A stretch of 64,000 bases of DNA from a virus (taxonomy: Duplodnaviria > Caudoviricetes), in IMG/VR virus record IMGVR_UViG_3300034062_006701; one strand, 5' to 3'. How positions within the stretch are numbered: the stretch's first letter is position 1; each line of letters begins with the position of its first letter. Below the pieces are notes generated by a model that saw nothing but the letters and a program-made list of their open reading frames with translations, was not told the DNA's origin and did not search any database. This document shows, one piece after another, positions 518-62,037 of the stretch. The translations under genes were made by a program, and so were the position numbers.

Positions 518-523
518 TAAATA
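518..523 (+). promoter_or_regulatory. T4-type late promoter TAAATA
   Basis: TAAATA, 5 nt, then ATG at 529. Confidence 0.65.
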
Positions 524-528
524 TTTTT

Positions 529-1014
529 ATGCACAGAGACGACACTAACTTAACTAATGCTTATCGTAGGGTATATCTTACCGAAGACGCAGACTTCCGT
601 GATCAAGAACTCGGAGTAGATCCTGAGGAAGCTAAAGTCTATGATGATGCAAAGAAAGATATCAGCTATGAGAAGTATCCATTCTGGGATGCTTATCATG
701 CAGTAAAAGAAGGCGCTTGGACAGAGGACGATTTCGTTCAATGGGCACGCTCTGTTTGGGCTGATGGTGCAGACAATCAAGCTTCGCATTCTTATGGAGA
801 AGATGCAGAGGGTATAAAATCAAATAACGTTGATGTTAATACTTTTATTGATGCTTTGAAAGCGAGAGAAATTAAAAAAGGTAATAAAGACTTTGCAAAC
901 GCAGCAGTAATAGGGGTTCTAAGCGCTCTTGTAAAGGACGTACTTAACGGTGAATCGTCTAAAGACATACAACATTCTATTAATAGAATGTATGAGGTTT
1001 ATTCAGAAGAATAA
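529..1014 (+). CDS. hypothetical late protein
   Basis: 161-aa ORF behind TAAATA. Confidence 0.8.
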   Translation: MHRDDTNLTNAYRRVYLTEDADFRDQELGVDPEEAKVYDDAKKDISYEKYPFWDAYHAVKEGAWTEDDFVQWARSVWADGADNQASHSYGEDAEGIKSNNVDVNTFIDALKAREIKKGNKDFANAAVIGVLSALVKDVLNGESSKDIQHSINRMYEVYSEE

Positions 1015-1030
1015 TATACCTTAATGGTAT

Positions 1031-1312
1031 ATGCCTAAAGCAAAGCTCTCTCTCCTTAAAAAAGGAATTCTAGATGAATTTCTGTCTGACTTCCTTACCC
1101 TACCCTGGAAGGTAAGGAAAGAACTCCTAGACCCTATCTATGAGTTGTATGAGGATGATCCAGATATTACCCAGAGAGATATCTATTCAGCTCTCTTCTA
1201 TATGACCTATGGGTTTGATCCGTCTGTTAAGATTACCCCGATTGCTGAGGTATTTAAGATGTTTAAGATCTACAGGGATAAATGGATTATGATCGATCTA
1301 ACTGACGTTTAA
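1031..1312 (+). CDS. hypothetical protein
   Basis: 93-aa ORF. Confidence 0.65.
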   Translation: MPKAKLSLLKKGILDEFLSDFLTLPWKVRKELLDPIYELYEDDPDITQRDIYSALFYMTYGFDPSVKITPIAEVFKMFKIYRDKWIMIDLTDV

Positions 1313-1382
1313 CGTCTACCGATCCTGAACCATATCATCATCTGTGTTCCAACTATAGGAATATAAAAAAGAGGCTAAGCTT

Positions 1383-1562
1383 TTATATGAGCTCTTTCTC
1401 AAGTACTGCAATTTGATAATTGATCTGATCCTGCAAGTTAGCACCATACATCATATGCTGTTTAATCATAGATTCAAGCACAAACACAATGTGGTGTTGA
1501 TCCTTTTTAGCTTTAATCAAAAGGTTTACTAAATCGGATATACTCTTTCGTTCTTGGGACAT
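1383..1562 (-). CDS. small hypothetical protein (59 aa, MSQERKS...)
   Basis: hand-translated, below the ORF-track cutoff. Confidence 0.55.
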   Translation of the reverse strand: MSQERKSISDLVNLLIKAKKDQHHIVFVLESMIKQHMMYGANLQDQINYQIAVLEKELI

Positions 1563-1601
1563 ATTCTATCCCAAGTATTTATTCTATTAAAGATGAGATA
1601 A

Positions 1602-1856
1602 TCAGCTACTAACACTACGAGAGAAATTCTTGACCGCAGACCTTGCACCATTAGGCTCATAGTACATCTTAGTATTCTTAAAGGATTGCTGAGACATAAT
1701 TTGAATTTCAGCGCCTGTCTTATGAGAATATACCATTCTTCCAAGTCTTGGTGTACCGAGCTTATGTTTGTTAGCACAGGTAGAACATGCTACCGTTGTA
1801 GGTAAGATCTCTAATCTCTCCTGTTCAATAGCACCTGAACACAATCTACAGATCAT
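1602..1856 (-). CDS. TraR/DksA-family C4 zinc-finger protein
   Basis: CRLC...IEQERLEILPTT..CSTC matches the DksA/TraR C4 finger. Confidence 0.8.
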   Translation of the reverse strand: MICRLCSGAIEQERLEILPTTVACSTCANKHKLGTPRLGRMVYSHKTGAEIQIMSQQSFKNTKMYYEPNGARSAVKNFSRSVSS

Positions 1857-1861
1857 ATTAA

Positions 1862-2098
1862 CTAGGATGCGTTATCCGAACAATAACTATCAAAGTTAAG
1901 CTCTTCTTTAAGGTCATCTATAACACCGTCAAGCATCATAACTGCCTCACGTTCCTCGATTCCATCATACCAGAAATCATGTAGGTTGACAACATCAGGT
2001 AGATCAGAATAAGAGAGTCCGAACGTCTTATGACAACGGATGTTTAGAGCGCGTTTAAAGTCTCTAAAGCTTATAGTAGGTTCATTTAGTATGTTCAT
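1862..2098 (-). CDS. hypothetical protein
   Basis: 78-aa ORF, tightly packed. Confidence 0.7.
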   Translation of the reverse strand: MNILNEPTISFRDFKRALNIRCHKTFGLSYSDLPDVVNLHDFWYDGIEEREAVMMLDGVIDDLKEELNFDSYCSDNAS

Positions 2099-2110
2099 AT
2101 TTCTATTAAA

Positions 2111-2545
2111 TTAACTGCCCCATGAGAATTCAAATACTCTTGTACCGTCTGAACGAGGATCCAATTCGTAGAAACCTTCAAGGAAGAGACAAGCAGTGGA
2201 GCCATCATTTGGATCAATAAGCTGTCTACCCGCCTCATTGATCATTTCCTCCCAACGAGGGTTTGGCATGACTTCACTATTGACCTGCTCGTCGCTGATC
2301 CTCCAATAAGAAGAGAAGAAAATGCAATTACCTTCAAACACCGGCTCGTCTGACCAGATATCTGGATGCCTCACAATCCACTCTTCCGTACCTCCATTAG
2401 AAACTGAATCAAACATTGAGAACTCTAGACCCACTCTACCAAGCTTACTCTTATGCTTACACATTCCCTTTGTAGCCTTCTGCAGAGTATTATAAGAAGA
2501 AGTTGCGGTAAGCTCTAAAAGAGGCGATGTTGCTTTAATTGTCAT
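2111..2545 (-). CDS. hypothetical protein
   Basis: 144-aa ORF with its own sigma70 promoter. Confidence 0.75.
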   Translation of the reverse strand: MTIKATSPLLELTATSSYNTLQKATKGMCKHKSKLGRVGLEFSMFDSVSNGGTEEWIVRHPDIWSDEPVFEGNCIFFSSYWRISDEQVNSEVMPNPRWEEMINEAGRQLIDPNDGSTACLFLEGFYELDPRSDGTRVFEFSWGS

Positions 2546-2551
2546 ACGATG

Positions 2552-2580
2552 AGTATATTCGATTTATCAGGAAGCTTCAA
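2552..2580 (-). promoter_or_regulatory. sigma70-type promoter
   Basis: TTGAAG-17-TATACT, 6 nt, ATG at 2545. Confidence 0.75.
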
Positions 2581-3763: not shown

Positions 3764-4116
3764 ACAGTCTTCTCTCTACCAAGCCACCTCTTATCCCATT
3801 CAGCTTGAGGTGTATATTCCTGAATAGTCTCCCAAAGAGAATCAATAGTGTGACAGATTTCTACCTTCTTCTTACCAACTGTCTTATAAGCTTTGTTAGG
3901 CTTTCCCTTCCCAGTTAGAGATGGTCTTTCATAAAGATACCAATCAATCCATCCAATCTGCTCATCATTGAAATGAGACTTCAAAAGGAGATCAACCATC
4001 CTTTCATAAGGTTCAGTGTAACTTAACAGATCAATACCAAGATCATAAGTCTTTCGACCCTTTTCATGCATTAGCTGAAGCTTTAAGATAATTTCTTCAA
4101 AGAGTTCTTTTGTCAT
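3760..4116 (-). CDS. hypothetical protein
   Basis: 118-aa ORF behind a cassette promoter. Confidence 0.75.
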   Translation of the reverse strand: MTKELFEEIILKLQLMHEKGRKTYDLGIDLLSYTEPYERMVDLLLKSHFNDEQIGWIDWYLYERPSLTGKGKPNKAYKTVGKKKVEICHTIDSLWETIQEYTPQAEWDKRWLGREKTV

Positions 4117-4122
4117 AATCTT

Positions 4123-4151
4123 ATTCTATATACTTTAGGAGGAGGTATCAA
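4123..4151 (-). promoter_or_regulatory. sigma70-type cassette promoter
   Basis: TTGATA-17-TAGAAT, 6 nt, ATG; the -35 contains the TGA stop of 4148..4372. Confidence 0.8.
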
Positions 4152-4372: not shown

Positions 4373-4607
4373 AGTCTAGACCTCTTTGTGTCATGATCTC
4401 CCAGAACTCTTTTCTAGCTTCTTCGAGAGCATCATAATAATCATCAGACTTTCCTTTATTGTCTCCAGTGTCTTCTGGATACTTGATCTTGTCTCTTAGG
4501 TATTGATCCATGTCCCAGGCAACCAAATACCAGCTAGTGGCATTGGATGCAAGTTTGAAGTCTGATTGTTCCTCTGGTAGATTAAAAGTTAATGTTCCTG
4601 TGGGCAT
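4359..4607 (-). CDS. hypothetical protein
   Basis: 82-aa ORF behind a promoter. Confidence 0.75.
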   Translation of the reverse strand: MPTGTLTFNLPEEQSDFKLASNATSWYLVAWDMDQYLRDKIKYPEDTGDNKGKSDDYYDALEEARKEFWEIMTQRGLDFDNW

Positions 4608-4613
4608 ATTCTT

Positions 4614-4641
4614 ATTATATATCTTTATGATGGAGTGTCAA
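4614..4641 (-). promoter_or_regulatory. sigma70-type promoter
   Basis: TTGACA-16-TATAAT, 6 nt, ATG; the -35 contains the stop of 4638..6122. Confidence 0.8.
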
Positions 4642-6122
4642 GAATTATTTTTCACATTGTGCCAAGGCCACTTACCATTCTTCATAAAGTAATCATAATT
4701 CGGATCCCTGTTTGCTTTCACTACTTTAAGTTCTTCTATCATTCTTTCAAGCTTTGCTACTTTCAGAGCTAAATCAGATGCTGCTTCTTCCCATGACTTC
4801 TCATCCTTTGATTCCTTACATTTATTACAAGGACACTTCCAAGGCTTTTCAAAATAATCTAAAACATCCTTACCTTCATCAAATCTCTCTTCAAGATTCT
4901 CAGCTGTTGTTTTATCATCTTCCCAATCATTAGGAACACCCTCATCAGCCATCCAATCAATTGTTTCGCCTTGGAACTCATTAGGAAATGACTTTGGTAA
5001 ATCATTTAGAGTATCTGCATACTCAGTAACTCTCTTCAAAAGCTCTTCAGCATTAAACTCTACCTCTTTTACAGGCTGTTCAAAGTCACTTGGATCATAA
5101 TCCTCAAATCCCTGGGTCTTCATATTCTTAAGTTCTTCAACAGCTTCTTTTACTTGTTCTCCTTCTAAAGGATCTTCATTGCTAAATTCAGACTCAACAA
5201 AATCAATGATATTTTTATTGTACTTTTCCTCGAATGCCTTATCTCTCTGCTCATTCAACCAATCAGAATAATGCTTCGGATAAGCTGATGCTGCACCATC
5301 ATAACCACCCCAATGGAGAGGGTACATAGGATGCTTTTGAGATTCCTTTTTTAGCTTTTCAACTTCTGCTTTTAACTCATCCCTCTCTTTAAGAAATCTC
5401 AAACAGGCATTTGCTACAACAACACCATGATTTTTTAACTCAGCATGGTTAATGATATATTCACGAACACCATTCCACTGATTTCGCTGATAAACATTAC
5501 TCTCCTTAAGTTTATCAATTTCTTTCTGCAACTTATTCATATCATCATAGCTAAAGCTTTGGGCATACTTGTCTTGATAATCTCTCAATTTACTCTTCAG
5601 TGCTTCAATCTCTTTATTAGCAGCATTAAGTTGGTGCTTATATTCATCCCTCTCTTCAGCACACTTCTTATAGTCATTCTGAATAATTTGAGTCTTAGCC
5701 TCATTAAAGGTTATACCATAGCTCTTCCCTTCTTTCTGAAGCAGTCTTTCAATCAACTCAACATTCTCAGTAATCTTCTTTACATACTTCTCATTAACTC
5801 TTTGAAGAGAATCTTTTAATTGCTTTTGATCTTCAATATCTTTTTTAAGCTTTGCATTCTCCTGTCTAAGCTCTACAGCAGCATTGTGCTCCTTAGTCCC
5901 ATCTTCTTCAATGGACTTGAGAAGAGCTTTATTGTTTTCATTCTCAGTCCAAAGTTCTTTATAAAGCTTTATAAATTCATCTGCTGTATATACTTTATCA
6001 TCAACAGTAAAAGTTGGTGTAGTTGTATAGGACCAAAAAGGCCAAGGTTGCTTACTCACAAGCTCTTCAGGTGTTGTAGAGTCACCAGCACTACCAAATT
6101 TTGGGAATAGATTAAAATTCAT
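4638..6122 (-). CDS. long coiled-coil hypothetical protein
   Basis: 494 aa, E/K-rich heptads. Confidence 0.8.
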   Translation of the reverse strand: MNFNLFPKFGSAGDSTTPEELVSKQPWPFWSYTTTPTFTVDDKVYTADEFIKLYKELWTENENNKALLKSIEEDGTKEHNAAVELRQENAKLKKDIEDQKQLKDSLQRVNEKYVKKITENVELIERLLQKEGKSYGITFNEAKTQIIQNDYKKCAEERDEYKHQLNAANKEIEALKSKLRDYQDKYAQSFSYDDMNKLQKEIDKLKESNVYQRNQWNGVREYIINHAELKNHGVVVANACLRFLKERDELKAEVEKLKKESQKHPMYPLHWGGYDGAASAYPKHYSDWLNEQRDKAFEEKYNKNIIDFVESEFSNEDPLEGEQVKEAVEELKNMKTQGFEDYDPSDFEQPVKEVEFNAEELLKRVTEYADTLNDLPKSFPNEFQGETIDWMADEGVPNDWEDDKTTAENLEERFDEGKDVLDYFEKPWKCPCNKCKESKDEKSWEEAASDLALKVAKLERMIEELKVVKANRDPNYDYFMKNGKWPWHNVKNNS

Positions 6123-6159
6123 TGTTTATATTATGATTCGAATAATCAAGATGTCAAGA

Positions 6160-6429
6160 TTAAAATCCAAACATTAATGCAGTTTGTGTGATAATAGGTT
6201 GGTTACCTCCATGAAACTTAAAGTCTCTACTAATAATTCCACCTAACTGACAATCTCTCTTCTTGGACACTCTAAGATGATACTTGGATTGTAACCTGTT
6301 AATATCTTCTATAAGATCTCTACTATCATGATATGAGCCAATATAGTCTATTACTTTAAATTCTCGTTCTTCATAAGCTCTCAATGTCATTGTAAAGAGC
6401 AACAGTATTAGAGCTGTAGTTTTGTACAT
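6160..6429 (-). CDS. hypothetical protein with signal-peptide-like N-terminus
   Basis: MYKTTALILLLFTMTLRA. Confidence 0.6.
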   Translation of the reverse strand: MYKTTALILLLFTMTLRAYEEREFKVIDYIGSYHDSRDLIEDINRLQSKYHLRVSKKRDCQLGGIISRDFKFHGGNQPIITQTALMFGF

Positions 6430-6472
6430 ATAATAAATATAAATGAAAGTTTAGAAAAATCAATAAGTATCA

Positions 6473-7150: not shown

Positions 7151-7459
7151 TTACCAACCACCATAATACCTATTTTTAATAGCTCTTAATTTAGCATGCA
7201 ATTGCTTGAGAATTTTATCATGTGCTACTCTACCTTGAGGGTCTACTGTTTCAAAATAATCTTCTCTTCGCTTATCTGATTCAATCTGTTTAATTTTCTC
7301 TTTAAGTTCTTTTGATTGTGCTAATAGTTTAGCAGCTTCCTCATCTGTTATATTAGGGTTTCTCAATGAGAGTGTCTGACTATTTCCCATAATACTCTCA
7401 ACTAATTTATCAAATTTCATATAATATTATTTATCTATGTTACTTTGAAAGAGATTTAA
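7128..7459. repeat. 23-bp direct repeat ATGTTACTTTGAAAGAGATTTAA flanking gene 7151..7420
   Basis: copies at 7128-7150 and 7437-7459. Confidence 0.9.
7151..7420 (-). CDS. late protein with MKFDKLVESIM N-terminus
   Basis: TAAATA promoter; 5' end shared with 7456..7911. Confidence 0.8.
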   Translation of the reverse strand: MKFDKLVESIMGNSQTLSLRNPNITDEEAAKLLAQSKELKEKIKQIESDKRREDYFETVDPQGRVAHDKILKQLHAKLRAIKNRYYGGW

Positions 7460-7911
7460 AGAGCTTGTTCTAGGTTTGATCTAAAGAGCTTATTAAATTC
7501 AATCATTGGTGTCCATTCAGGGTTCAATGAATAAATTTGATACACTTGAAAGGAATCAGGTACTTTTAAATTAATTTTTACTGTACCTTTATCATGATAA
7601 TTTGTAAAGTCATTAGCATATTTGTTGAGAATAACTTCCTGTGCATTTTTAGCAGCTTGTATAGTTTTTTCCCTAATTTGTTGAATCTGTTCATCAGAAA
7701 GACCTAAACCTTTGAGTTCTTTGACAATAACCTGTGCATTATATCTAGGGGCACCAGTCTTTGGATCATAAGCAATGTGATCAAAAATCTTTTTACCAAT
7801 ACCTTTCAATCCTTTAGATGCTGGTCTGTCATAATCCCCAAAAACAGATTTAACAACATCTGATTTTTCAAAAGATTCCATAATACTCTCAACTAATTTA
7901 TCAAATTTCAT
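7456..7911 (-). CDS. late protein with MKFDKLVESIM N-terminus
   Basis: TAAATA at 7919-7924; shared 5' end. Confidence 0.8.
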   Translation of the reverse strand: MKFDKLVESIMESFEKSDVVKSVFGDYDRPASKGLKGIGKKIFDHIAYDPKTGAPRYNAQVIVKELKGLGLSDEQIQQIREKTIQAAKNAQEVILNKYANDFTNYHDKGTVKINLKVPDSFQVYQIYSLNPEWTPMIEFNKLFRSNLEQAL

Positions 7912-7943
7912 ATAATATTATTTAATCAATTTGTTTTTTTTAG

Positions 7944-8147: not shown

Positions 8148-8969
8148 TTAGTGTTGTCCACCTTCCCATGTACTACCACAAGGGCCACCACTCTCATTAA
8201 CATCGATCACAATATCTTCTCCTTCAGGTGTTATCAAGGGTATATAATGTCTGCTGATGCGCTGAGTGGATTTTGGAACATAATGGCAGATAAAGGATCT
8301 ACGAAATCTGTCTTTGGATCTATTTGGCCCTGAGCCATGAATTGAACTACCATTAAAGAATAATGTATCACCTGATTTCATAATACAAGGAACAGCCTTT
8401 TTTCCTTTTGGAGTTGGTACAAAATGGTTTGTGAATGACTCTGCTGCATTGGCTTCTTTTGGACATATAATTTCCTCTTCTGCTGTATCTGCTACAAGAT
8501 ACATTCCACCATTCTCTGGATCTGCATCATCGATAGCAGTCCATGCTGCAACACATGTTTGTGGTTCAACTAAAAGATAGAAATTATCTTGATGCATTGC
8601 CTGTCCTCTAGAGCCTGGTGGTTTGTAGTAAAACATGCTTTGAGCAGCAAGTACATCTTCTTGCATAAGCTCTTTCAAGCAAAAAAGAACAGCTGGATGG
8701 ACAAGATTTTTGCGTGATACAGAGTCATAACGATGTGGTTGCAGCACTCTCGGAAATTCTTTTAAAGGGTCTCCATTTGATTCATCTTTAGAGACAGGGT
8801 AAAAATAATCTTCAATAGTACCACTCTTTGCAATTCGATCAAAGGTATTTTTAATTTCTTCAACTTCAGCTTCAGAAAAGAGACCTCTTGCTACAGCATA
8901 ACCATGTTGCTTAAAGGAGGCTTTCATCTCTTCAAGGTTAACAGATTCAGGGAGTGTATATGTACTCAT
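8148..8969 (-). CDS. phytanoyl-CoA dioxygenase family (Fe(II)/2OG) protein
   Basis: QSMFYYKPPG..GQAMHQDNFY, AWTAIDDADPENG, HGSGPNRS..FRR. Confidence 0.88.
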   Translation of the reverse strand: MSTYTLPESVNLEEMKASFKQHGYAVARGLFSEAEVEEIKNTFDRIAKSGTIEDYFYPVSKDESNGDPLKEFPRVLQPHRYDSVSRKNLVHPAVLFCLKELMQEDVLAAQSMFYYKPPGSRGQAMHQDNFYLLVEPQTCVAAWTAIDDADPENGGMYLVADTAEEEIICPKEANAAESFTNHFVPTPKGKKAVPCIMKSGDTLFFNGSSIHGSGPNRSKDRFRRSFICHYVPKSTQRISRHYIPLITPEGEDIVIDVNESGGPCGSTWEGGQH

Positions 8970-8977
8970 ATTATTAT

Positions 8978-9463
8978 TTATCTTCCTGCTATAAGCATTA
9001 CTCTAGTTATAATCTCTTCCAAATCATCCTTATCATATCTTGGATGCTGATCCCAGTCTGGATCTCCATAATGTTCCAAGTACCAATCGATTTCATTAAC
9101 TATGGATTTAGACAGAAGATTAATAAGTTCAGCTTCAGCTTCTTCTATAGTATCCCAATCTGTATCTTCATAATCATGGTTGATATAACCAGCATGTTGG
9201 ACTGTATAAACAACCTTCTCGCCATATTGATAATCAGTAATGATATAGAAATGACAATCTCGATCTTTATAATAGTCCACACAGACAGTGTTATACCACA
9301 ACTTATTCAGTTCTATAATTTTCTCATGATTGGTCATTTTATTAAACTTTATTATACCACTTCCTAAATTCTTTGCAATAGATTTTCTTACAGTCTTACA
9401 GAATCCTTCCCAAGAACCACAAGAGGATTTCCAATCAGATGTTTTAGGCATTGGTATTTTCAT
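8978..9463 (-). CDS. hypothetical protein
   Basis: 161-aa ORF. Confidence 0.7.
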   Translation of the reverse strand: MKIPMPKTSDWKSSCGSWEGFCKTVRKSIAKNLGSGIIKFNKMTNHEKIIELNKLWYNTVCVDYYKDRDCHFYIITDYQYGEKVVYTVQHAGYINHDYEDTDWDTIEEAEAELINLLSKSIVNEIDWYLEHYGDPDWDQHPRYDKDDLEEIITRVMLIAGR

Positions 9464-9725
9464 AACCCATATTAAGTTCTTGAGCCTGTGCAGTCAATTC
9501 ATTTAGAGCTTGTTCCCTCTTAGCAAAATTAATTATATTCCTTCTGAATCTCTGATAATCTCCTTCATAGATTCCCCAGTCTCCATTACTGAGCTTGGAG
9601 ACAGTTTGACCATTAATAAACTTTGTCCAGGCTGGAATCAGATCCTTAGGGATAGCATTTATAATATCAGCTTCTGGAATACATCCATCCTCTTTAGCCT
9701 TTAGATTTGGAATTACATCACTCAT
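9444..9725 (-). CDS. hypothetical protein
   Basis: start moved to MSDVIP. Confidence 0.7.
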   Translation of the reverse strand: MSDVIPNLKAKEDGCIPEADIINAIPKDLIPAWTKFINGQTVSKLSNGDWGIYEGDYQRFRRNIINFAKREQALNELTAQAQELNMGYENTNA

Positions 9726-10077
9726 TGTCTTTCTTCTCAAAGATGTGCCCAACAACCTCTAGGGTATCATTAAGGAAATTGGAATCATTCATAGCAAACA
9801 TCATAGTTCTTCCAAAGAGGAACATTCCATCATCCCAGTAAACCTCTTGAGTTGTCTCATGTTGATCATCTCCAGGTCCAGACAACCAAATAAAATTAAC
9901 AAGGTCACCCTCATAAATCTCTTTGCCATTCTTATCCAAGAGTCCAGTAAACTGTTGAGGGTAAGAGACTCCTCCAGCAATTCCCAGATTTGCTCCCTCA
10001 TAGATATCAAAGTCTACAAACTCTTTTGTAAGAAATGCCCAAACTCTGAATTTTAGTGCTCTATTTTCTGTATTCAT
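9718..10077 (-). CDS. YopX-family protein
   Basis: LKFRVW...QFTGLLDKNGKEIYEGD...LEVVGHIFE. Confidence 0.88.
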   Translation of the reverse strand: MNTENRALKFRVWAFLTKEFVDFDIYEGANLGIAGGVSYPQQFTGLLDKNGKEIYEGDLVNFIWLSGPGDDQHETTQEVYWDDGMFLFGRTMMFAMNDSNFLNDTLEVVGHIFEKKDNE

Positions 10078-10116
10078 TGTTCCTATATAGTATAGGTTTT
10101 AGGTGGACACTTCAAG

Positions 10117-10515
10117 CTACTTCTTAATCTTCAGACTCTTTACATCAACTCCAAACTTCTCAGCAATGTCCTTCAAAGTAACTTCAGTTACTAGGTTTGG
10201 ATTAGAGATTCTATTTCCTTTTGAATCAAACCAAGCTTCAGATCCAAAAGAGTCCTTGCGATGAATCAAATTATTATTCTCATCATATTCTTTCCAAAAT
10301 TCAAATCCATCTGAGTTCTTGTAATGAATCAGATTATTATTCTCATCATATTCATACCAAGATTCAGATCCATCTGAGTCCTTGTAATGAATCCGATTAC
10401 TATTCTCATCATATTCATTCCAATATTCATATCCATCTGAGTCCTTGATATGAATTTCATTTCCCTTTGAATCTTTGGTTACGAGTGGATAATTGATTAC
10501 AGGTTTGTTTTTCAT
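10117..10515 (-). CDS. protein with about four tandem 22-aa IHYKDSDGxExWxEYDENNN repeats
   Basis: 66-nt tandem repeats visible in DNA and protein. Confidence 0.8.
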   Translation of the reverse strand: MKNKPVINYPLVTKDSKGNEIHIKDSDGYEYWNEYDENSNRIHYKDSDGSESWYEYDENNNLIHYKNSDGFEFWKEYDENNNLIHRKDSFGSEAWFDSKGNRISNPNLVTEVTLKDIAEKFGVDVKSLKIKK

Positions 10516-10523
10516 GTTTTTAT

Positions 10524-10552
10524 ATTCTATATGCTTTAGGAGGAGGTGTCAA
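10524..10552 (-). promoter_or_regulatory. sigma70-type cassette promoter
   Basis: TTGACA-17-TAGAAT; 10517-10552 is identical to 22561-22596. Confidence 0.85.
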
Positions 10553-11036: not shown

Positions 11037-11247
11037 TACTCAAAAATGCTCTTTCCTTAAATTCAACAATCATTTTTCTCAGTTCCTCAGACTTCCCTTC
11101 TCTAATAAGACTAATAGGAGTTCTATTTTCAAGAGCATTATTAGGAGTAGAAAGCCAAAGAACAACCTTATCAGCCTCTAAAAATGTCTTCAGCTTCATC
11201 ACCCAGATATAAAGATCAGTATGAAGATTTGCAGAGTCTAATTCCAT
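10999..11247 (-). CDS. MbcA/ParS/Xre-type antitoxin C-terminal (DUF2384-like) protein
   Basis: WLSTPNNALENRTPISLIREGKSEEL fits the family motif WL..PN.AL.g..P..L. Confidence 0.7.
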   Translation of the reverse strand: MELDSANLHTDLYIWVMKLKTFLEADKVVLWLSTPNNALENRTPISLIREGKSEELRKMIVEFKERAFLSIAPSYEKNQSNN

Positions 11248-11253
11248 AATCTT

Positions 11254-11281
11254 ATTCTATGTGTTTAAACAAAATTGTCAA
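11254..11281 (-). promoter_or_regulatory. sigma70-type promoter
   Basis: TTGACA-16-TAGAAT, 6 nt, ATG; the -35 contains the upstream stop. Confidence 0.75.
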
Positions 11282-11952
11282 TCCTCAATATCAGGCTTGT
11301 GATGATCAAATGTAACCTCATCATAATTTCTAAACTTAGCTCTTAGCTCAGCAAATGAAATAGGCTCAGGACAAATCTCCACACCTACATCCATTGTCTT
11401 TGCCTTATAGAGGATCTTTCCAAGCTCAGACTTATAGAGATTACCATGGGAATGACTATGAAGCTGCCAAGCTCCTTTATGCTGACCATTCCAAGTAGCC
11501 TGGGCATAATGATTCAGAACAATTGGCTGACCATTGATTACAATCTCTAGATAATTTGGAACAAAGTGAACCTTCTTATACTCAGTTGCTCCTGGTAGGA
11601 GAACATTATCCTGAACACTATCAAATAGCTGCTTATACCCTGCCTGATGATTACCAGGAAGAACATAAAGCTCTTTGAAGTCTAGTCTCCTAAAAAGACT
11701 TAGAAGCCTCTCATCAGCATTATGACCAAAGATTGTATCACCTAGAAGGAATCCAATAGTACTAGCATTAGCCTTCTTATTCCAATTCTGGATTAGACCC
11801 TCATCATGAAGCTCAACACTACTATAACCTCTGGACTTCCAAAGAGGTGTCTCCCATCTCTCACACTTGTGTCCTATGTGAAGACATCCCTGGAAAAGGA
11901 AATCATGATCCTTTCCAGAGAACTTTAGAGACTTATAAAAGAGATCCTTCAT
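11278..11952 (-). CDS. phage calcineurin-like phosphoesterase
   Basis: CLHIGH, LLGD, PGNH, LNHY, LHSHSHG, DVGV motifs. Confidence 0.85.
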   Translation of the reverse strand: MKDLFYKSLKFSGKDHDFLFQGCLHIGHKCERWETPLWKSRGYSSVELHDEGLIQNWNKKANASTIGFLLGDTIFGHNADERLLSLFRRLDFKELYVLPGNHQAGYKQLFDSVQDNVLLPGATEYKKVHFVPNYLEIVINGQPIVLNHYAQATWNGQHKGAWQLHSHSHGNLYKSELGKILYKAKTMDVGVEICPEPISFAELRAKFRNYDEVTFDHHKPDIED

Positions 11953-11990
11953 TATTCCTAAAGTATAAAGGAAATCTTAGGACAAGGCAA

Positions 11991-13910: not shown

Positions 13911-13916
13911 AATCTT

Positions 13917-48921: not shown

Positions 48922-48949
48922 GAGAGAGAGCATATATATGCTCTCTCTC
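48922..48949 (-). terminator. intrinsic terminator-like hairpin
   Basis: perfect palindrome GAGAGAGAGCATATATATGCTCTCTCTC with a T-run on the minus strand. Confidence 0.7.
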
Positions 48950-48970
48950 GTTGTAGACTCTTAAAGTTTA

Positions 48971-49210
48971 TTAGAGAAATCTAACGTTACCGGAATTTAA
49001 AATTTCAGTAGCTTTACTGAGGACTGTCTCGTTAGTCCAGTTTCCAGCTGCAGTATACTCCTCTTCACCATCCCAAAGGACGACCGGGGAAGGGAGACCC
49101 TTAACTCTTGCAACAATCTTCTTCTCGAGGAAGAGATCTCTTACTGCTAAAACTTCAACTTCATCAATGGTAACGGTTTCTGCCGGTCTAAGTGTAAATG
49201 TAATGCTCAT
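48971..49210 (-). CDS. small late protein, paralog of 43707..43949
   Basis: shared motif; TAAATA at 49217-22. Confidence 0.8.
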   Translation of the reverse strand: MSITFTLRPAETVTIDEVEVLAVRDLFLEKKIVARVKGLPSPVVLWDGEEEYTAAGNWTNETVLSKATEILNSGNVRFL

Positions 49211-49233
49211 ATTGAGTATTTATTGTTTAAAAA

Positions 49234-49581
49234 TTATAATACTACAGAAATCAATTGATTTCTATTGGATAATTTTGTATATCCTGCTTTATTGTAAAAC
49301 ACTACATCAACTATACCGGTACCTGAAAGAGCGAATCCTGGTATAGTTACGCGTAAATTGTTGTTATCGATTGCTGCAAAGTATTTTTGTGGTAGATTAT
49401 AACCAGAAAATGGTGGACAAAAGCTTGATACCACTCTGTTTGTGGTAAATGTATTTACCGCTGTTAGACTTGGAAATCTAACAGTTCCAGAGCTTAAAAA
49501 AACATTTAATGTATAATTATACTGATAACCTTGTACATTAAGATAAGCGGTAGTGAGAGGTGATAATGTTATGAATTCCAC
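49234..49581 (-). CDS. beta-rich late protein (Ig/IPT-like?)
   Basis: GTG start 5 nt after TAAATA; GTGIVDVVFYNKAGY. Confidence 0.65.
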   Translation of the reverse strand: MEFITLSPLTTAYLNVQGYQYNYTLNVFLSSGTVRFPSLTAVNTFTTNRVVSSFCPPFSGYNLPQKYFAAIDNNNLRVTIPGFALSGTGIVDVVFYNKAGYTKLSNRNQLISVVL

Positions 49582-49611
49582 GATATTATTTATTAATATC
49601 GAGTAGGTACA

Positions 49612-49845
49612 TTAAATCTTAACCACCATACCTTCATCTGAATTCCAGCGATGAAATGGGTTTGTGTATTTACTAGGTTTTTTCTTAGGCTTGGAATTTA
49701 CGACACGGTATGGGTTCTCTGCTGTATAGTGCCATGAATACGTTTTTAAATGCTTAGAGACTTCCGACATTGTTTTAAAGGACAAACCAGGAAAAGAATC
49801 CCACGCACGCCCTGTCCACCTCTCAACGACAAATCTCATCGACAT
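49612..49845 (-). CDS. hypothetical protein
   Basis: start moved to MSMRFV. Confidence 0.65.
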   Translation of the reverse strand: MSMRFVVERWTGRAWDSFPGLSFKTMSEVSKHLKTYSWHYTAENPYRVVNSKPKKKPSKYTNPFHRWNSDEGMVVKI

Positions 49846-50177: not shown

Positions 50178-50251
50178 TGGTAGGAGATGACGGTAACGCT
50201 CCGCCGAATCCTGAGTGTAAATCAGGTGTTTTACTTTTAAACTAATCTCCC
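50178..50251 (-). tRNA. tRNA-Val(UAC), non-canonical T-loop AGCGTTA
   Basis: CCTGA-TT-TAC-AC-TCAGG; CCA encoded. Confidence 0.85.
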
Positions 50252-52583: not shown

Positions 52584-52995
52584 TTAGGTACTCCAAACCC
52601 TTCTTATACTTCTCAATCTGTTTCTGAGATGGTGTATCATTCAGGTTATAGGTCATATCGGCAATCTTTACTGCCCTGGCTATAGCATTCTCCTTTACCT
52701 TCTTTAGATACTCTTCATATGAAAGATGATCAAACTTTGTTAGAATCAAGACTGCGTCAACTACCATCTTAGGCATTCCAATCTTCTGAAGATCCATGGA
52801 GTTATAATTCGTATCTTCAATGACATCATGAAGGTAGGCGGTAGCAATGTACTCAGGCTTCTGCGGCTTAACTAGCCTGGCGACACCATCAACATGCTTA
52901 AAGTATGGAGTAGTACCATCTCTACGGAACTGACCCATATGGGCTATCTGGGCAAAGTTCCTGGCCGTTGCTATAAGATCTAATCCGTCTTTCAT
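52576..52995 (-). CDS. HD-domain (p)ppGpp-hydrolase-like protein (SpoT/Mesh1 type)
   Basis: AH.GQFRRDG.TPYFKH, LHDVIEDT, VKIADM..NL. Confidence 0.85.
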   Translation of the reverse strand: MKDGLDLIATARNFAQIAHMGQFRRDGTTPYFKHVDGVARLVKPQKPEYIATAYLHDVIEDTNYNSMDLQKIGMPKMVVDAVLILTKFDHLSYEEYLKKVKENAIARAVKIADMTYNLNDTPSQKQIEKYKKGLEYLND

Positions 52996-53001
52996 ATTAC
53001 C

Positions 53002-53030
53002 ATAATAGATTCCAGAAGAAGGAATGACAA
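53002..53030 (-). promoter_or_regulatory. sigma70-type promoter
   Basis: TTGTCA-17-TATTAT, 6 nt, ATG. Confidence 0.7.
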
Positions 53031-55125: not shown

Positions 55126-55416
55126 TTATGAAGATGCAAGCATCTTAAGCGACTTAAATTCGTTTTTAAAAAACAACTGACCAACAATTGTCAGTCTTTG
55201 CTTAAGCAGAGGCATAAAGGTAATAACATCACCGTTCTCAAGTGCTTGAATAATATCGCGGATATAATCACGATCACTCTCGTAGTGCTGACGAATTTTC
55301 TCGTTATTGTCTAGCATAGAAGATAGCATTCGCTCGAGAGAAGCTTTCTTATATTGAATTAATCTCTGACCAAACGTAATTGAGAGATCAATTTCTGCTA
55401 TTTCTCTGTCAGTCAT
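55126..55416 (-). CDS. hypothetical protein
   Basis: 96 aa; promoter TTGCAT-17-TATTCT 6 nt upstream. Confidence 0.7.
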   Translation of the reverse strand: MTDREIAEIDLSITFGQRLIQYKKASLERMLSSMLDNNEKIRQHYESDRDYIRDIIQALENGDVITFMPLLKQRLTIVGQLFFKNEFKSLKMLASS

Positions 55417-55454
55417 AAAAAGAGAATATACTCCTTTAAAGGAAGATGCAAGAT

Positions 55455-57062: not shown

Positions 57063-57263
57063 TTATCTCCTACGCTTATATTTACGGTCCTGAGCCTTTT
57101 GTTTACGTTTCTTCTTTTGGGCCTTTGTCTCAAAGGAACGACGATTTTTTACCTCTTCGAGGATATTACCAGCGTCGAGCTTTGTTTTAAGTCTCTTAAG
57201 AGCACGATCTATATCCTCTCCTTGATAAACCTTTATAGAGTAAAGCCCGCCTCGTCTAATCAC
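57063..57263 (-). CDS. rpsU: ribosomal protein bS21
   Basis: IKVYQGEDIDRALKRLKTKLD...EEVKNRRSFET; GTG start assumed. Confidence 0.85.
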   Translation of the reverse strand: MIRRGGLYSIKVYQGEDIDRALKRLKTKLDAGNILEEVKNRRSFETKAQKKKRKQKAQDRKYKRRR

Positions 57264-57386
57264 AGGAAAAATATTATGTTGCAAGCAGTTAGAAATATTT
57301 CTAAACCGCTAATTTGGTTAATAAAAGAGTGAACACCGTTCATATGTTCGAATATTTATATAATAAATACCTTCTATTTACAATAA

Positions 57387-57602: not shown

Positions 57603-57833
57603 CTACCTCTTCTTTTTACGAACAAAGATATTAACTTTCGCAGACTTCATATCCTTCTCTGCAATAATAAAGCGAAACGGTCTACCTTCATACTTGTTAT
57701 TCTCTCTGATGAGAGCACGACGTAGAATACCTTCACGCTCTTCATACGTACACTCCTTAATAAAAGGAACAGTAATAGTATACATTTCTTCGTTTTTTGG
57801 CTTAGACTTTGCTTTGATAGGTGCTTTAGGCAT
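57603..57833 (-). CDS. basic hypothetical protein
   Basis: 76-aa ORF behind a promoter. Confidence 0.65.
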   Translation of the reverse strand: MPKAPIKAKSKPKNEEMYTITVPFIKECTYEEREGILRRALIRENNKYEGRPFRFIIAEKDMKSAKVNIFVRKKKR

Positions 57834-57850
57834 TCCTATAGTATAAAGAG

Positions 57851-57991
57851 CTATTTAAATTTAACAAGAATAAACTTCCATAATTTCTGTACTGCGAGAA
57901 ATGTAAAGAAGATCGTCCAGTATAAAGCACCAGTCGCTAGAAAAGGCAAAAGAATTAATGCAAAAAAAATACCTTCTTCAGCGGTAAGCAT
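57851..57991 (-). CDS. small membrane protein (46 aa)
   Basis: hand-translated; TAAATA 5 nt upstream. Confidence 0.6.
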   Translation of the reverse strand: MLTAEEGIFFALILLPFLATGALYWTIFFTFLAVQKLWKFILVKFK

Positions 57992-58008
57992 AAAGATATT
58001 TAATATTT

Positions 58009-58768: not shown

Positions 58769-59503
58769 TTAGCAATGATAATTTATAAATCTTTGAGCTC
58801 CCTTTGCTGTAGCGTTAGATTTATTCTTTTGTTTTGATTTTAAGGCTCGAGCCTTAGCACAGGTTACTTTACCCTTTATTTGACGCTTGAGAATACCAGG
58901 ACGAACTGGATCATGTATATTCTTCTTCTCTGTAACTTCTGCAAGACCTGGTTGGGTATTAAAACGGTTTGAAGCTCGTACACCTCTACCAACTTTCTTG
59001 ATTTGCCGTGCACCTGCTACTACAGCCCGAGCTATCGGCTTTGCTTTTCGTAATTTAAGAACTTTGATGATATCAGCAAACGGAATCAAAGATATAGCAC
59101 TGATCCCTGCATTGATTATATGTTTCTTTCGTTCGTCAGTTGTCTTGGATAATCCAGCTCGTAGCCCTGATATTAAGACATTTGCAGCATCGGCAAACGT
59201 ACCGAAAGTAGGTTCAAAGCCTATTACATCTAAGGCGGCTTGAAGTGTGTTTATTGCTTGCTGTGTGCCTTCTACAACATTAGAAAGCTTTGTATAATAG
59301 TCGGGGTCTTCAAACAAGTGATCCATAGCAATCTTTCTTGCAACACTATCATCCTTTGTATGTTCGTGCTCTATTTTAATACCCTTCTTTAACTGACTGC
59401 TAATATGCTCTATAGAAACCTTGTGCTTCTTAGCGAGATCATCAATGCTTTTACCTTTAGCTAGACCACTAAATGTCTGTTCGTAAAAAGTCTTGAAAGT
59501 CAT
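58769..59503 (-). CDS. late protein with a DUF5661-like N-domain
   Basis: QLKKGIKIEHEHT...IAMDHL.EDPDYYTKL. Confidence 0.7.
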   Translation of the reverse strand: MTFKTFYEQTFSGLAKGKSIDDLAKKHKVSIEHISSQLKKGIKIEHEHTKDDSVARKIAMDHLFEDPDYYTKLSNVVEGTQQAINTLQAALDVIGFEPTFGTFADAANVLISGLRAGLSKTTDERKKHIINAGISAISLIPFADIIKVLKLRKAKPIARAVVAGARQIKKVGRGVRASNRFNTQPGLAEVTEKKNIHDPVRPGILKRQIKGKVTCAKARALKSKQKNKSNATAKGAQRFINYHC

Positions 59504-59515
59504 AAAAGTATTTAT

Positions 59516-59598
59516 GCTAGATAGGTCTTCGTTGGCTACCGGGTCTTTAACCCGCTGGACGAAGCGCTCTAGTTGCCCCCTGCCTACTCGGGTCTAGC
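59516..59598 (-). ncRNA. unassigned 83-nt structured RNA
   Basis: terminal GCUAGA/UCUAGC, UAGG/CCUA, CUUCGU/ACGAAG and GGGU/ACCC stems; starts 5 nt after TAAATA (59604-09). Confidence 0.65.
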
Positions 59599-59816: not shown

Positions 59817-60563
59817 TTATTTAAGAGACATTATATCTTCTTTTTTCCACACAATCAAGCTTTCCTTAAATTGATTCCATTTACATCGATCAAGCTCTGT
59901 TTCAAATCCTTTTACTTCCAAATAACCACCAAGTTCTTCTACCCAAAAATCAGGTGTATAATAAGCATCTCTACCGTTCAAGTGAACATATTTAAACCGT
60001 TGCGTATTTCTCTTCCAATTATAATTTTTACTATCTAACCATTTTGCAACTCTAAGCTCCCACGTGCCATCCACAGTTATATCACCAGCGATTGGACTCA
60101 AATACGTGTATTTTTTGCATCTACCGGCTTTATTGTCCCACCCTTCAGCGTGTCTACGTAATGCGCTTTGTCTAATAAGTTCTTTAGATTTTTCTGTATG
60201 TTTACGACCAGTATATACCGTCCTACCGGTAATATAGTTTTCACGCTTAGTATTTAAAAGTTTTTGAACGCGTGGATCTTCAGCTGTTAAACCCTTGTTC
60301 CACGCCGTGCTTCCTTTTTGTCTGCCTGCATTAGGTGACCGCTTTCCAGGTATTCTATTGGGATTTAATTTACATCTTTTAATATGTACGATAAGCGATC
60401 CCTTGTTAAGAATTTCCTTATTACAGAAATTACACTTTGTATCATTATATTGTGCATATAGCCTTTTACCGCACTGTTTACCATTTAAATGACGCTGTAT
60501 CGTTGATAAAGATATTTTTTTATTGCAACCAGGGCAATCTGTGTAGTTTCTTTTAATTTTCAC
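59817..60563 (-). CDS. free-standing PD-(D/E)xK endonuclease with zinc fingers and a NUMOD3-like motif
   Basis: CPGC, CNFC, GRKHTEKSKELIR, DGTWE, YTPDF...YLEVKG; GTG start 6 nt after TAAATA. Confidence 0.85.
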   Translation of the reverse strand: MKIKRNYTDCPGCNKKISLSTIQRHLNGKQCGKRLYAQYNDTKCNFCNKEILNKGSLIVHIKRCKLNPNRIPGKRSPNAGRQKGSTAWNKGLTAEDPRVQKLLNTKRENYITGRTVYTGRKHTEKSKELIRQSALRRHAEGWDNKAGRCKKYTYLSPIAGDITVDGTWELRVAKWLDSKNYNWKRNTQRFKYVHLNGRDAYYTPDFWVEELGGYLEVKGFETELDRCKWNQFKESLIVWKKEDIMSLK

Positions 60564-60609
60564 CAAAGATATTTAGTCTAGACGGTCACTTTTAACCACT
60601 CTTACAAAC

Positions 60610-60696
60610 AAGAGGTGGAGGGATTCGAACCCCCGAGACCGGTTATGGTCTGGCGATTTAGTAAATCGCTCTCGTCGACCGCTTGAGTACACCTCC
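60610..60696 (-). tRNA. tRNA-Ser(ACU)
   Basis: GCGAT-TT-ACT-AA-ATCGC; AGACC/GGTCT variable arm; no CCA. Confidence 0.88.
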
Positions 60697-60725
60697 GTGT
60701 TATATAAGAAAATTTTATTATAAGT

Positions 60726-60749
60726 GCTCCTGGTCGCTCAATCCAGAGC
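60726..60749 (-). other. hairpin in the hsp20 3' UTR, complementary to the 5' UTR
   Basis: minus strand GCUCUGG-AUUGAGCGA-CCAGGAGC. Confidence 0.7.
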
Positions 60750-60763
60750 TAAATTAAACTTTT

Positions 60764-61243
60764 TTAATTAACCTTCACGTCGATAGAAACGACCTCCGGT
60801 TTTACGACAGGGACCTTAACTCGAAGAAGGCCGTCTGTGTATGTTGATGAGATGTTCTTAATGTCCGTATTGTCATTGAGGGTGAAGGACAATTGTCCCT
60901 TCCTCCTACTAATGCCCTTACGGTGGAAGTGGACGGTCTCATCATGTTCCTCTTCCTCTTTATTAACATTAATGTGGAGTCGACCCTCCTTAACATTAAC
61001 GGTAATATTGTCTTTACCGACCCCTGCCAACGCTACTTCAATATAGTATGCGTATGGATTCCCATCAGGATCGGTTTCCGATACGATGTTATAAGGATAT
61101 GTAGCATTTGGAATATCAAATGCTTTATCAAAATCCTTGATAACGCTGCTTAGCCAACTTTCGTTAAACAGGCCTGGAAGATGGCTATAACCAGTACCTG
61201 CTGCCGGGATTACCCGACCTAGTGTGTATGTGTGTGTTGTCAT
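60764..61243 (-). CDS. small heat-shock protein Hsp20
   Basis: YPYNIV, IEVALAG, HRKGISRR, ISSTYTDGLLRV.VP. Confidence 0.92.
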   Translation of the reverse strand: MTTHTYTLGRVIPAAGTGYSHLPGLFNESWLSSVIKDFDKAFDIPNATYPYNIVSETDPDGNPYAYYIEVALAGVGKDNITVNVKEGRLHINVNKEEEEHDETVHFHRKGISRRKGQLSFTLNDNTDIKNISSTYTDGLLRVKVPVVKPEVVSIDVKVN

Positions 61244-61248
61244 ATATG

Positions 61249-61319
61249 TTCTCCTTTGTTAAGCGAGTTAATATGTTTACTTTAGTCCTGTTTGAGCGAC
61301 CAGAGCAAATATATTTATA
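61249..61319 (-). promoter_or_regulatory. hsp20 late promoter TATAAATA plus leader with SD AAAGGAGAA
   Basis: promoter 61312-19; the only clear canonical SD I noticed on a protein gene. Confidence 0.75.
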
Positions 61320-61343
61320 TACGACTATTCTTATTTGGCAATA

Positions 61344-62021
61344 CTAGAATTTAATTTTTTTCTTAAAATCTTTAAAATTACTCTTAAGCTCAAGAACAAC
61401 ATCGGTAATATTCTCGAGTTCCTTTTTATTGAGTTTTGTTTTACTCTTCAGAGATAAGAATTCGGTAGAAAAGTACGCCTGTAACTCATCATTGATAACA
61501 GACTTATCGTATCCCAATTCAAATAAAACACCGACTGCTTTCTTTTTAGCGGAAGGTATAAGCTTTTTTAGAATTGAATTTGCCTTCTTTTTATACTCTT
61601 CATCTAAGAAATATAAAGCATGACATACTTCGTGCTCCACAGTCTTCTTATTATCATCTGAACCTATTAGGTAGTAGTGATTAGGTATGGGTATCTCTTT
61701 ATTAATCTTCTTGTGTATATTCTCAATAATCTCATCATATACATTATAATCTTCAATACCGAGCTTAAAGAGATTGGCTATAACCGGGCCAGGAACATTG
61801 AAACCACCCCAATCCTCAGGGTACGTAAAAACACCTCCGTTCTTTTTAGAATACAGTGACATGAGCTCAACAAGCGTGAATTTCTGTCCCTTTATCTGCT
61901 TAATAGGCGATTCATAGAACTCCTGAACCCTACAGAACGTCATCGCTAAATCATACATATCCTTAATTGAACAGAGATAGATACCGGGATAGAGGTTTTT
62001 AAGTGTGTAGTTGACGTTCAT
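61344..62021 (-). CDS. HExxH-containing hypothetical protein
   Basis: RVQEFYES, HEVCHALY. Confidence 0.65.
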   Translation of the reverse strand: MNVNYTLKNLYPGIYLCSIKDMYDLAMTFCRVQEFYESPIKQIKGQKFTLVELMSLYSKKNGGVFTYPEDWGGFNVPGPVIANLFKLGIEDYNVYDEIIENIHKKINKEIPIPNHYYLIGSDDNKKTVEHEVCHALYFLDEEYKKKANSILKKLIPSAKKKAVGVLFELGYDKSVINDELQAYFSTEFLSLKSKTKLNKKELENITDVVLELKSNFKDFKKKIKF

Positions 62022-62037
62022 TTTGTATTTATTAAGA

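Follow-up and report, generated by a model that had tools for sequence, protein, structure and literature searches.

Promoters placed directly before start codons in a freshwater jumbo phage and the case for leaderless mRNAs

Do phages that set their promoters directly against their start codons make leaderless mRNAs, which begin at the start codon itself? The question is raised by a 64,000-nucleotide (nt) stretch of DNA from the IMG/VR virus record IMGVR_UViG_3300034062_006701 (Duplodnaviria; Caudoviricetes), referred to below as the window. An original prediction made from its letters held that both the early, host-type (sigma70) promoters and the late promoters of the phage T4 type, with a TAAATA core, lie so close to the following genes that the start codon falls at about +1. 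The placement of promoters against start codons was confirmed and is statistically very strong. Judging from the promoter geometry, from which both the transcription start sites (TSSs) and the mode of translation are read, the promoter-proximal genes are probably expressed from leaderless mRNAs.

Promoter-to-start distances in the window

The gene set comprised approximately 118 crude genes, each taken to start at the first ATG of its open reading frame (ORF), and distance profiles were drawn from 117 crude starts. Host-type promoters of the form TTGnnn-N16/17-TAnnnT ended exactly 6 nt before the ATG in 16 genes, with other host-type promoters at 8 nt (5 genes), 9 nt (6 genes) and 5 nt (3 genes); the profile for distances of 0 to 15 nt was 0,0,0,0,0,1,16,0,5,6,1,0,2,1,1,1. 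TAAATA ended 5 nt (nine genes) or 6 nt (three genes) before an ATG or GTG, with further cases at 7 nt (starts 7420 and 7911) and 4 nt (62021), and its profile from a distance of 0 was 0,0,0,1,1,9,3,2,0,1,0,... As a null model, the 60 nt upstream of each gene were shuffled 2000 times. The peaks were far sharper than in the shuffled sequence, which is the outcome that the original prediction had expected of such a histogram: shuffling gave a mean of 0.17 and a maximum of 3 host-type promoters at 6 nt against the 16 observed, and a mean of 0.46 and a maximum of 3 TAAATA boxes at 5-6 nt against 12. A motif-centred scan was also run, in which each promoter-like site was paired with the first ATG or GTG after it that begins an ORF of 50 amino acids (aa) or more, and the distance between the two was taken; of 56 TAAATA occurrences in the window, 8 lay 5 nt and 3 lay 6 nt from such a start.

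All 13 early starts that had been put forward (2545, 4116, 4607, 11247, 13910, 22166, 22561, 23495, 25766, 27955, 29436, 52995 and 55416) were found to follow TTGnnn, 16-17 nt, TAnnnT and 6 nt before an ATG, and three more with the 6-nt spacing were added (6429, 36024 on the plus strand, and 57833). The 12 proposed late starts (529, 8969, 24851, 31949, 39133, 43949, 48877, 49210, 49581, 57991, 59503 and 60563) likewise all have TAAATA 5-6 nt before an ATG or GTG, and the second early group, said to lie at 8-9 nt, is made up of 11 host-type promoters. The early promoters have the TTGACA-like -35 element, the spacer of 17 +/- 1 nt and the TAnnnT -10 element of sigma70-type promoters, and when matches to the sigma70 consensus were ranked between 9.5 and 29.5 kb, five of the eight best (11 of 12 positions) adjoined an ATG. 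The late elements are T4-type boxes, in which the base before the core TAAATA is A, T or C and the position relative to the start site is a predicted one; a variable first T of this box is known in phages RB49, KVP40, S-PM2 and Aeh1 (PMC1524935).

Overall, 30 genes had a host-type promoter 5-9 nt upstream, 15 had TAAATA 4-7 nt upstream and 73 had neither (n=118), so that 45/118 genes (approximately 38%) are promoter-adjacent and approximately 62% are not. The 45 promoter-adjacent genes, listed in Table 1 with two contrasting leadered genes, start with ATG (41) or GTG (4) and never with TTG, and the predicted +1 is therefore always a purine. Among 28 strict cases, 22 had a pyrimidine (T or C) at -1, and A stood at +4 in 30 of the 45 genes.

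The two groups of genes also differed in what lies before them. The intergenic gap before promoter-adjacent genes had a median of 38 nt, the length of one promoter, whereas the 73 other genes began a median of 4 nt after the upstream stop codon (with an overlap in 22 and a gap of 0-15 nt in 25), which suggests translational coupling of operon-internal genes. Shine-Dalgarno (SD) motifs were scored as a GGAG, GAGG or AGGA 4-mer at -18 to -4, for which the background was 8.8%. Such 4-mers preceded 4/45 promoter-adjacent genes, equal to background, and all four lie within the promoter itself; among the other genes they preceded 14/73. GGAG-type motifs stood at SD distance before the operon-internal starts 13312, 52076, 57057, 30946, 12937 and 13551, and the earlier statement that a clear SD precedes only hsp20 was therefore inaccurate. 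The claim that the phage relies mainly on leaderless initiation was similarly overstated, given the 45/118 share and the closely spaced or SD-led remainder. Taken together, the gaps, SD counts and promoter classes describe a design in which a leaderless first gene would be followed by genes that are coupled or, now and then, led by an SD. Terminator-like hairpins found by a generic scan of the window were at chance level (10 versus 8.6 +/- 2.9 expected).

The clearest leadered gene is hsp20, with a predicted leader of approximately 63 nt; the gene for ribosomal protein bS21 has no SD, and its TTG start is uncertain. TAAATA was present before the hsp20 leader (61306) and before a proposed non-coding RNA (ncRNA; 59598), the 5' ends of both being predicted. 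The proposed ncRNA (approximately 59515-59598) is without a known family, because Rfam at its gathering threshold matched tRNAs alone in the window.

Could the promoter-side codons be incidental, with the true starts downstream and ordinary leaders on the mRNAs? Most promoter-adjacent genes are short orphan genes whose N-terminus is fixed by no homologue, and their starts were called simply by taking the first ATG of each ORF. However, an ATG or GTG lies exactly at the predicted +1 in 28 cases, which cannot be incidental, and an in-frame stop lies no more than 48 nt upstream in 42/45 promoter-adjacent genes, with an alternative upstream start in just 1/45. Where domains could be annotated they begin close to the N-terminus: Metallophos from residue 3 (gene start 29436), a PRPP (phosphoribosyl pyrophosphate) synthase PHROG match from residue 4 (19888), the NAMPT_N Pfam domain from residue 7 (18548), Mtd_N from residue 10 (31949), and a ribonucleotide reductase (RNR) match from residue 12 (42539). 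The frame of the 1639-aa gene is open for 1425 nt ahead of its first ATG; an in-frame stop lies 18 nt upstream of a GTG, and this GTG, 5 nt after TAAATA, is the first possible start. In the cultured T4-like myophage HTVC008M of Pelagibacter (NC_020484), all 7 of the TAAATA-N5-ATG sites checked are independently annotated coding sequence starts, including those of head-closure and baseplate genes. Mis-assigned starts are thus a very improbable source of the pattern, and were rejected as its cause on the strength of the 28 starts at the predicted +1, the N-terminal domains and the open 1639-aa frame; the start codons of promoter-adjacent genes are reliable.

Table 1. Promoter-adjacent starts in the window, followed by two leadered genes for contrast
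Position	Strand	Promoter element	Distance to start (nt)	Start	Remarks
518-531	+	TAAATA	5	ATG	late; 161-aa gene
2543-2580	-	TTGAAG-N17-TATACT	6	ATG	host-type
4114-4151	-	TTGATA-N17-TAGAAT	6	ATG	
4605-4641	-	TTGACA-N16-TATAAT	6	ATG	
6120-6157	-	TTGACA-N18-TAATAT	5	ATG	494-aa gene
6427-6463	-	TTGATT-N16-TATATT	6	ATG	newly added
7418-7433	-	TAAATA	7	ATG	
7909-7924	-	TAAATA	7	ATG	
8967-8980	-	TAAATA	5	ATG	
9461-9497	-	TTGACT-N17-TAATAT	5	ATG	
10075-10115	-	TTGAAG-N17-TACTAT	9	ATG	predicted leader 2-3 nt
10513-10552	-	TTGACA-N17-TAGAAT	8	ATG	29-nt cassette
11245-11281	-	TTGACA-N16-TAGAAT	6	ATG	
11950-11990	-	TTGCCT-N17-TATACT	9	ATG	
13908-13945	-	TTGACA-N17-TAGAAT	6	ATG	
15496-15533	-	TGGACA-N18-TACTTT	5	ATG	weakest call
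18546-18586	-	TTGACA-N17-TAGAAT	9	ATG	NAMPT gene
19886-19925	-	TTGTCT-N17-TAGATT	8	ATG	PRPP synthase-like gene
22164-22201	-	TTGACA-N17-TAGACT	6	ATG	
22559-22596	-	29-nt early cassette (22568-22596)	6	ATG	
23493-23530	-	TTGACT-N17-TATTAT	6	ATG	
24849-24862	-	TAAATA	5	ATG	
25156-25196	-	TTGAAA-N17-TATTAT	9	ATG	
25764-25801	-	TTGAAG-N17-TAGTAT	6	ATG	
27117-27156	-	TTGAAG-N17-TAGACT	8	ATG	
27491-27530	-	TTGAAG-N17-TAGTAT	8	ATG	
27953-27990	-	TTGACT-N17-TATTAT	6	ATG	
29434-29471	-	TTGACC-N17-TACTAT	6	ATG	Metallophos phosphoesterase gene
30418-30457	-	TTGCTT-N16-TATCAT	9	ATG	
31937-31951	+	TAAATA	6	ATG	1341-aa fibre-like gene
35990-36026	+	TTGTTT-N16-TAAAAT	6	ATG	weak -35
39131-39144	-	TAAATA	5	GTG	
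39637-39677	-	TTGCCA-N17-TAATCT	9	ATG	
42537-42575	-	TTGTTA-N16-TAAAAT	8	ATG	RNR large subunit; weak promoter, uncertain
43947-43960	-	TAAATA	5	ATG	
48875-48888	-	TAAATA	5	GTG	1639-aa gene
49208-49222	-	TAAATA	6	ATG	
49579-49592	-	TAAATA	5	GTG	
52993-53030	-	TTGTCA-N17-TATTAT	6	ATG	
55414-55451	-	TTGCAT-N17-TATTCT	6	ATG	
57831-57867	-	TTGTTA-N16-TATACT	6	ATG	
57989-58002	-	TAAATA	5	ATG	46-aa ORF
59501-59514	-	TAAATA	5	ATG	
60561-60575	-	TAAATA	6	GTG	
62019-62031	-	TAAATA	4	ATG	
60764-61243	-	TATAAATA at 61312-61319		ATG	hsp20 gene; AAAGGAGAA before ATG; leader and SD
57063-57284	-	TATAAATA at 57353-57360	approximately 65		bS21 gene (Pfam Ribosomal_S21, E 1e-12); not leaderless

Conservation of the spacing in related phages

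Many relatives of the window were found in IMG/VR, including complete genomes of approximately 200-226 kb. Two complete relatives provide independent counts, since only 12% (G008) and 9% (G006) of the window DNA is shared with them, at 72-75% DNA identity. Sigma70-type promoters at 6 nt numbered 28 in G008 and 20 in G006, and TAAATA boxes at 5-6 nt numbered 38 and 18. Across 1.47 Mb of related loci, which are partly orthologous, TAAATA distances peaked at 5 nt (151), followed by 6 nt (68) and 7 nt (56), and sigma70-type promoters with a 17-nt spacer peaked at 6 nt (90), whereas the profiles were flat for control motifs of like composition and for promoters with a 13-nt or 21-nt spacer between -35 and -10. 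A homologue of T4 gp55 was found in four of five large relatives (phrog_234, 'late sigma transcription factor', E 4e-27 and 1e-24), and both complete relatives, of approximately 200 kb, encode this gp55-type late sigma.

Loci flanking the RNR genes lack conserved neighbouring genes and were therefore poorly suited to orthologue tests; the two complete relatives served better. In the G006 and G008 orthologues of the gene at 29436, a -10 box still stands 6 nt before the start, in a different sequence. In G008, the orthologue of the gene at 39133 has TAAATA, 5 nt and ATG (GTG in the window), that of 43949 has a TAAATA spacing of 6 nt (5 in the window), and that of 57833 keeps its promoter 6-7 nt before the ATG. 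Promoter spacing was not kept in other orthologues.

One 29-nt early promoter (22568-22596, minus strand) was found in 29 stretches from approximately 20 IMG/VR contigs. With the window included there are 49 copies, and in 31 an ATG lies exactly 6 nt downstream, opening different ORFs. Such repetition raises the prospect that the exact spacing is a by-product of promoter cassettes copied and pasted together with their ATG, free of any leaderless constraint. The PeSL mobile cassettes of phages RB49 and phi1 reportedly place conserved strong early promoters, with a stem-loop terminator, before small orphan ORFs in plastic regions, and the repeated early promoters before small orphan ORFs seen here resemble them. 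The identical 29-nt cassette, mostly with an AAGATT spacer, does precede dozens of unrelated small ORFs in relatives, and promoter sub-families are repeated within the window. Nevertheless, promoters with unrelated -10 and spacer sequences (2545, 23495, 29436, 52995 and 55416) keep the 6 nt, late boxes with variable spacers keep 5-6 nt, and orthologues with different promoter sequences keep the spacing. The gaps of approximately 38 nt hold only a promoter fused to the ATG, and the stem-loop terminator pairing reported for PeSLs was not found in them. Cassette spread is also compatible with leaderless function, and as a full account of the spacing it is quite unlikely.

The commonest early-promoter spacer (22568-22596, 10524-10552, 13917-13945 and 4123-4151, all on the minus strand) has the coding-strand sequence CCTCCTCC, similar to the anti-SD end of 16S rRNA and conserved exactly in 49 copies across relatives. 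Since it lies upstream of the predicted start site, it would occur only in read-through RNA. In a second early sub-family (25764-25801, 27117-27156, 27491-27530, 25156-25196 and 10075-10115), TTGAAG is followed by a spacer with GTCCTAAAAAT and then TATAGnnT. It differs from the TTGACA/CCTCCTCC family, with TCCTAAA in the spacer common to both, and might mark a different temporal class. Two genes of 89 and 151 aa (7418-7433 and 7909-7924) have an identical promoter-plus-start region, TAAATA, 7 nt and then ATGAAATTTGATAAATT, and look like a local duplication.

Leaderless initiation weighed against an RNA-level element

RNA polymerase prefers a pyrimidine at -1 and a purine at +1, and the purine starts and the T or C at -1 in 22/28 cases match this preference. 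The -10 hexamer of sigma70 promoters occupies -12 to -7. The T4 late box TATAAATA occupies -13 to -6 (PMC1524935), and with both positions the A or G of the start codon falls at +1; the proposal that the start codon lies at about +1 is thus supported by promoter positions and by the bases around the start. In the mechanism that we propose, host-type promoters ending 6 nt, or 8-9 nt, before the ATG, and late boxes ((A/T/C)TAAATA) ending 5-6 nt before ATG or GTG and presumably read by a gp55-type phage sigma, would start transcription on the first base of the start codon (A or G), or 2-3 nt earlier in the 8-9 nt class. The first gene of such an mRNA would be translated without an SD, most likely by direct binding of the ribosome to the 5'-terminal start codon, and the downstream genes of the unit would be reached by stop-start coupling, with a minority using GGAG-type SD motifs.

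Several points weigh against this explanation. The TSSs of this phage and its relatives are predictions from promoter geometry; prediction from a -10 element is good to approximately +/-1-2 nt, by rules from E. coli and T4, and the host is probably a verrucomicrobium. Gene and start calls were crude, and the fixed spacing could be partly inherited with copied cassettes, given the AAGATT spacer that most copies share. The TAAATA box of nrdB lies 6-15 nt from the start in various relatives, and as boxes are found 7-15 nt before some orthologous starts, of which nrdB is an example, there are also short leaders without an SD. GTG opens four of the late genes; in E. coli a leaderless GUG is a poor start for translation, but mycobacteria use it (PMC4633059), as do Thermus phages.

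A different explanation is that TAnnnT and TAAATA act in the RNA, as SD-independent ribosome-binding or enhancer elements suited to an SD-scarce host, with transcripts that start further upstream and carry leaders. The Verrucomicrobiota, the probable host lineage, are reported to be SD-scarce (PMC10783764), no SD peak was seen in a crude analysis of 400 kb of verrucomicrobial genomes, and 5-9 nt is also the usual distance from SD to AUG. Read-through from upstream is likely, because terminator-like sites are at chance level (10 vs 8.6). What an RNA element leaves unaccounted for is the TTGACA-like -35 at the canonical 16-17 nt, with no peak for spacers of 13 or 21 nt, and the presence of TAAATA before the tRNA/ncRNA region and the long hsp20 and bS21 leaders, where no start codon follows. 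Relatives encode gp55, and in Deinococcus the box that was tested acted as a promoter and not as a ribosome-binding site (PMC12340547). We therefore consider an RNA element unlikely, and leaderless mRNAs are the reading compared with known systems below.

Known systems, host lineage and significance

The closest precedent is found in the Thermus phages YS40 and Lalka27a. In these phages, according to a preprint (bioRxiv 10.64898/2026.04.20.719267, citing Sevostyanova 2007), promoters sit immediately before the ORFs, as they do in the window phage, and for this reason the A or G of the initiator codon is the first base of most transcripts. The Thermus promoters have their own motifs (late -10 TAGGGT) and are read by host RNA polymerase, and the host is a thermophile in which leaderless genes are common (PMC12340547), whereas the window belongs to an uncultured, mesophilic freshwater jumbo phage. 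The late class here is of the T4 type, TAAATA with a presumed gp55-type sigma, the early class has a full -35/-10 consensus, and the probable host lineage shows no comparable signal in a crude test. Leaderless-dominated phage transcriptomes are already established in Thermus phages, and the promoter-start fusion here is a variant of a known expression strategy.

T4 late promoters (TATAAATA; gp55, gp33, gp45) share the core box, and relatives of the window encode a gp55 homologue, but in T4 the distance from box to ATG varies without a sharp peak and GGAG leaders follow many of the sites, unlike the 5-6 nt without SD in the window phage. HTVC008M has the same late layout (TAAATA, 5 nt, ATG), with N=5 in 14/74 TAAATA-N(0-20)-ATG sites. 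It differs in that its host is SAR11 and its host-type promoters (extended -10, TGTGATATAAT) lie mostly 7-14 nt from the ATG with no 6-nt peak. HTVC008M is reported to encode bS21 as well. A conserved early promoter of this phage, TTGACTTTT...TGTGATATAAT, has no obvious SD (e.g. 80353-80384, 97020-97063 and 118213-118255).

In Deinococcus-Thermus, TAnnnT a few bp upstream of an ORF is a -10 element that gives leaderless mRNA, boosted by a -35 at 17 +/- 1 bp (PMC12340547). The box abuts the ORF as in the window phage, but these are cellular genes mostly without a -35, whereas the window has a strong -35 and a second promoter class presumably read by a phage sigma. The lambda cI mRNA from PRM has a 5'-terminal AUG translated without SD, and its +4 A contacts the ribosome (PMC10491246), which is comparable with the frequent A at +4 here; cI is a single regulatory gene rather than a genome-wide design. 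Among jumbo phages, phiKZ had no leaderless transcript among its mapped start sites (PMC8244752), and mapped leaders of AR9 were 26-491 nt (PMC5312081). A literature search found no published description of promoter-start fusion in T4-like phages.

The best 80 matches to the phage bS21 among species-representative genomes were all from Verrucomicrobiota (Akkermansiaceae, Luteolibacter and others) at 43-53% identity, and these affinities suggest a verrucomicrobial host. Akkermansia species are reported to be SD-scarce although the CCUCC anti-SD is retained (PMC10783764), and the lack of SD motifs in the phage is thus consistent with its likely host. The 400 kb, taken from three verrucomicrobial genomes, also had no sharp -10 peak at 6 nt, which with crude starts and no SD-positive control genome is a weak result. 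Fusion of promoter to ATG appears to be the phage's own design.

The original prediction also proposed that the phage's own bS21, together with leaderless initiation, could bias ribosomes away from host mRNA. In E. coli, the leaderless cI mRNA is translated better when ribosomes lack uS2 and bS21 (PMC10491246), which is the opposite direction, and Flavobacterium bS21 helps hide the anti-SD (reviewed in PMC10783764). One could speculate, as a long shot, that a widespread freshwater jumbo-phage clade, probably infecting Verrucomicrobiota, has leaderless first genes in nearly all early and late units and uses its bS21 to re-tune ribosomes, for example in anti-SD handling, so that these mRNAs out-compete those of the host in a virus-run programme of specialised ribosomes.

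Should the transcripts indeed begin at the ATG, they would mark, as far as searchable papers show, the first T4-type (gp55) late system, and the first mesophilic aquatic jumbo-phage clade, with leaderless mRNAs in both temporal classes. SD-dependent gene callers will mis-start genes in these phages, and with the promoter-to-ATG rule hundreds of orphan genes in abundant lake phages could be given an exact start and a temporal class. Whether phages combine SD-independent initiation with their own bS21 to favour their own messages also becomes testable, and as the late layout occurs in cultured HTVC008M on Pelagibacter, start-site mapping is feasible there.

The GC content of the window is 36%, and nearly all of it is transcribed on the minus strand. 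Besides at least 10 tRNA genes, there are genes for both RNR subunits (large and small), NAMPT, a PRPP-synthase-like protein, Hsp20, ThyX, the Metallophos phosphoesterase, the 1341-aa fibre-like protein and bS21. The DNA of the window was present in many freshwater and lake metagenomes; all 24 listed for 20001-30000 and 47801-49700 are DNA data sets, with no RNA data set among them. In searches against 50,697 phage records for close cultured relatives, neither the window (megablast) nor the 1341-aa and 1639-aa proteins (tblastn) gave a match, and an IMG/VR search with the 494-aa protein found no relatives. The 1341-aa late protein (31949-35974, plus strand), a fibre candidate, combines an Mtd_N (major tropism determinant) domain at the N-terminus with an antifreeze-like beta-roll. 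A tRNA at 50181-50251 (minus strand) matched Rfam and was missing from the ARAGORN list, and an 87-nt 'tRNA-Ser (act)' at 60610-60696 (minus strand) was called by ARAGORN and not reported by Rfam at its gathering score. The RNR large subunit is at best only approximately 62% identical to those of cultured phages and has relatives in at least 595 IMG/VR stretches, the best 80 (L030-L109) being 68-97% identical; their flanking genes are mostly unrelated, and aquatic phages seem to exchange the RNR module.

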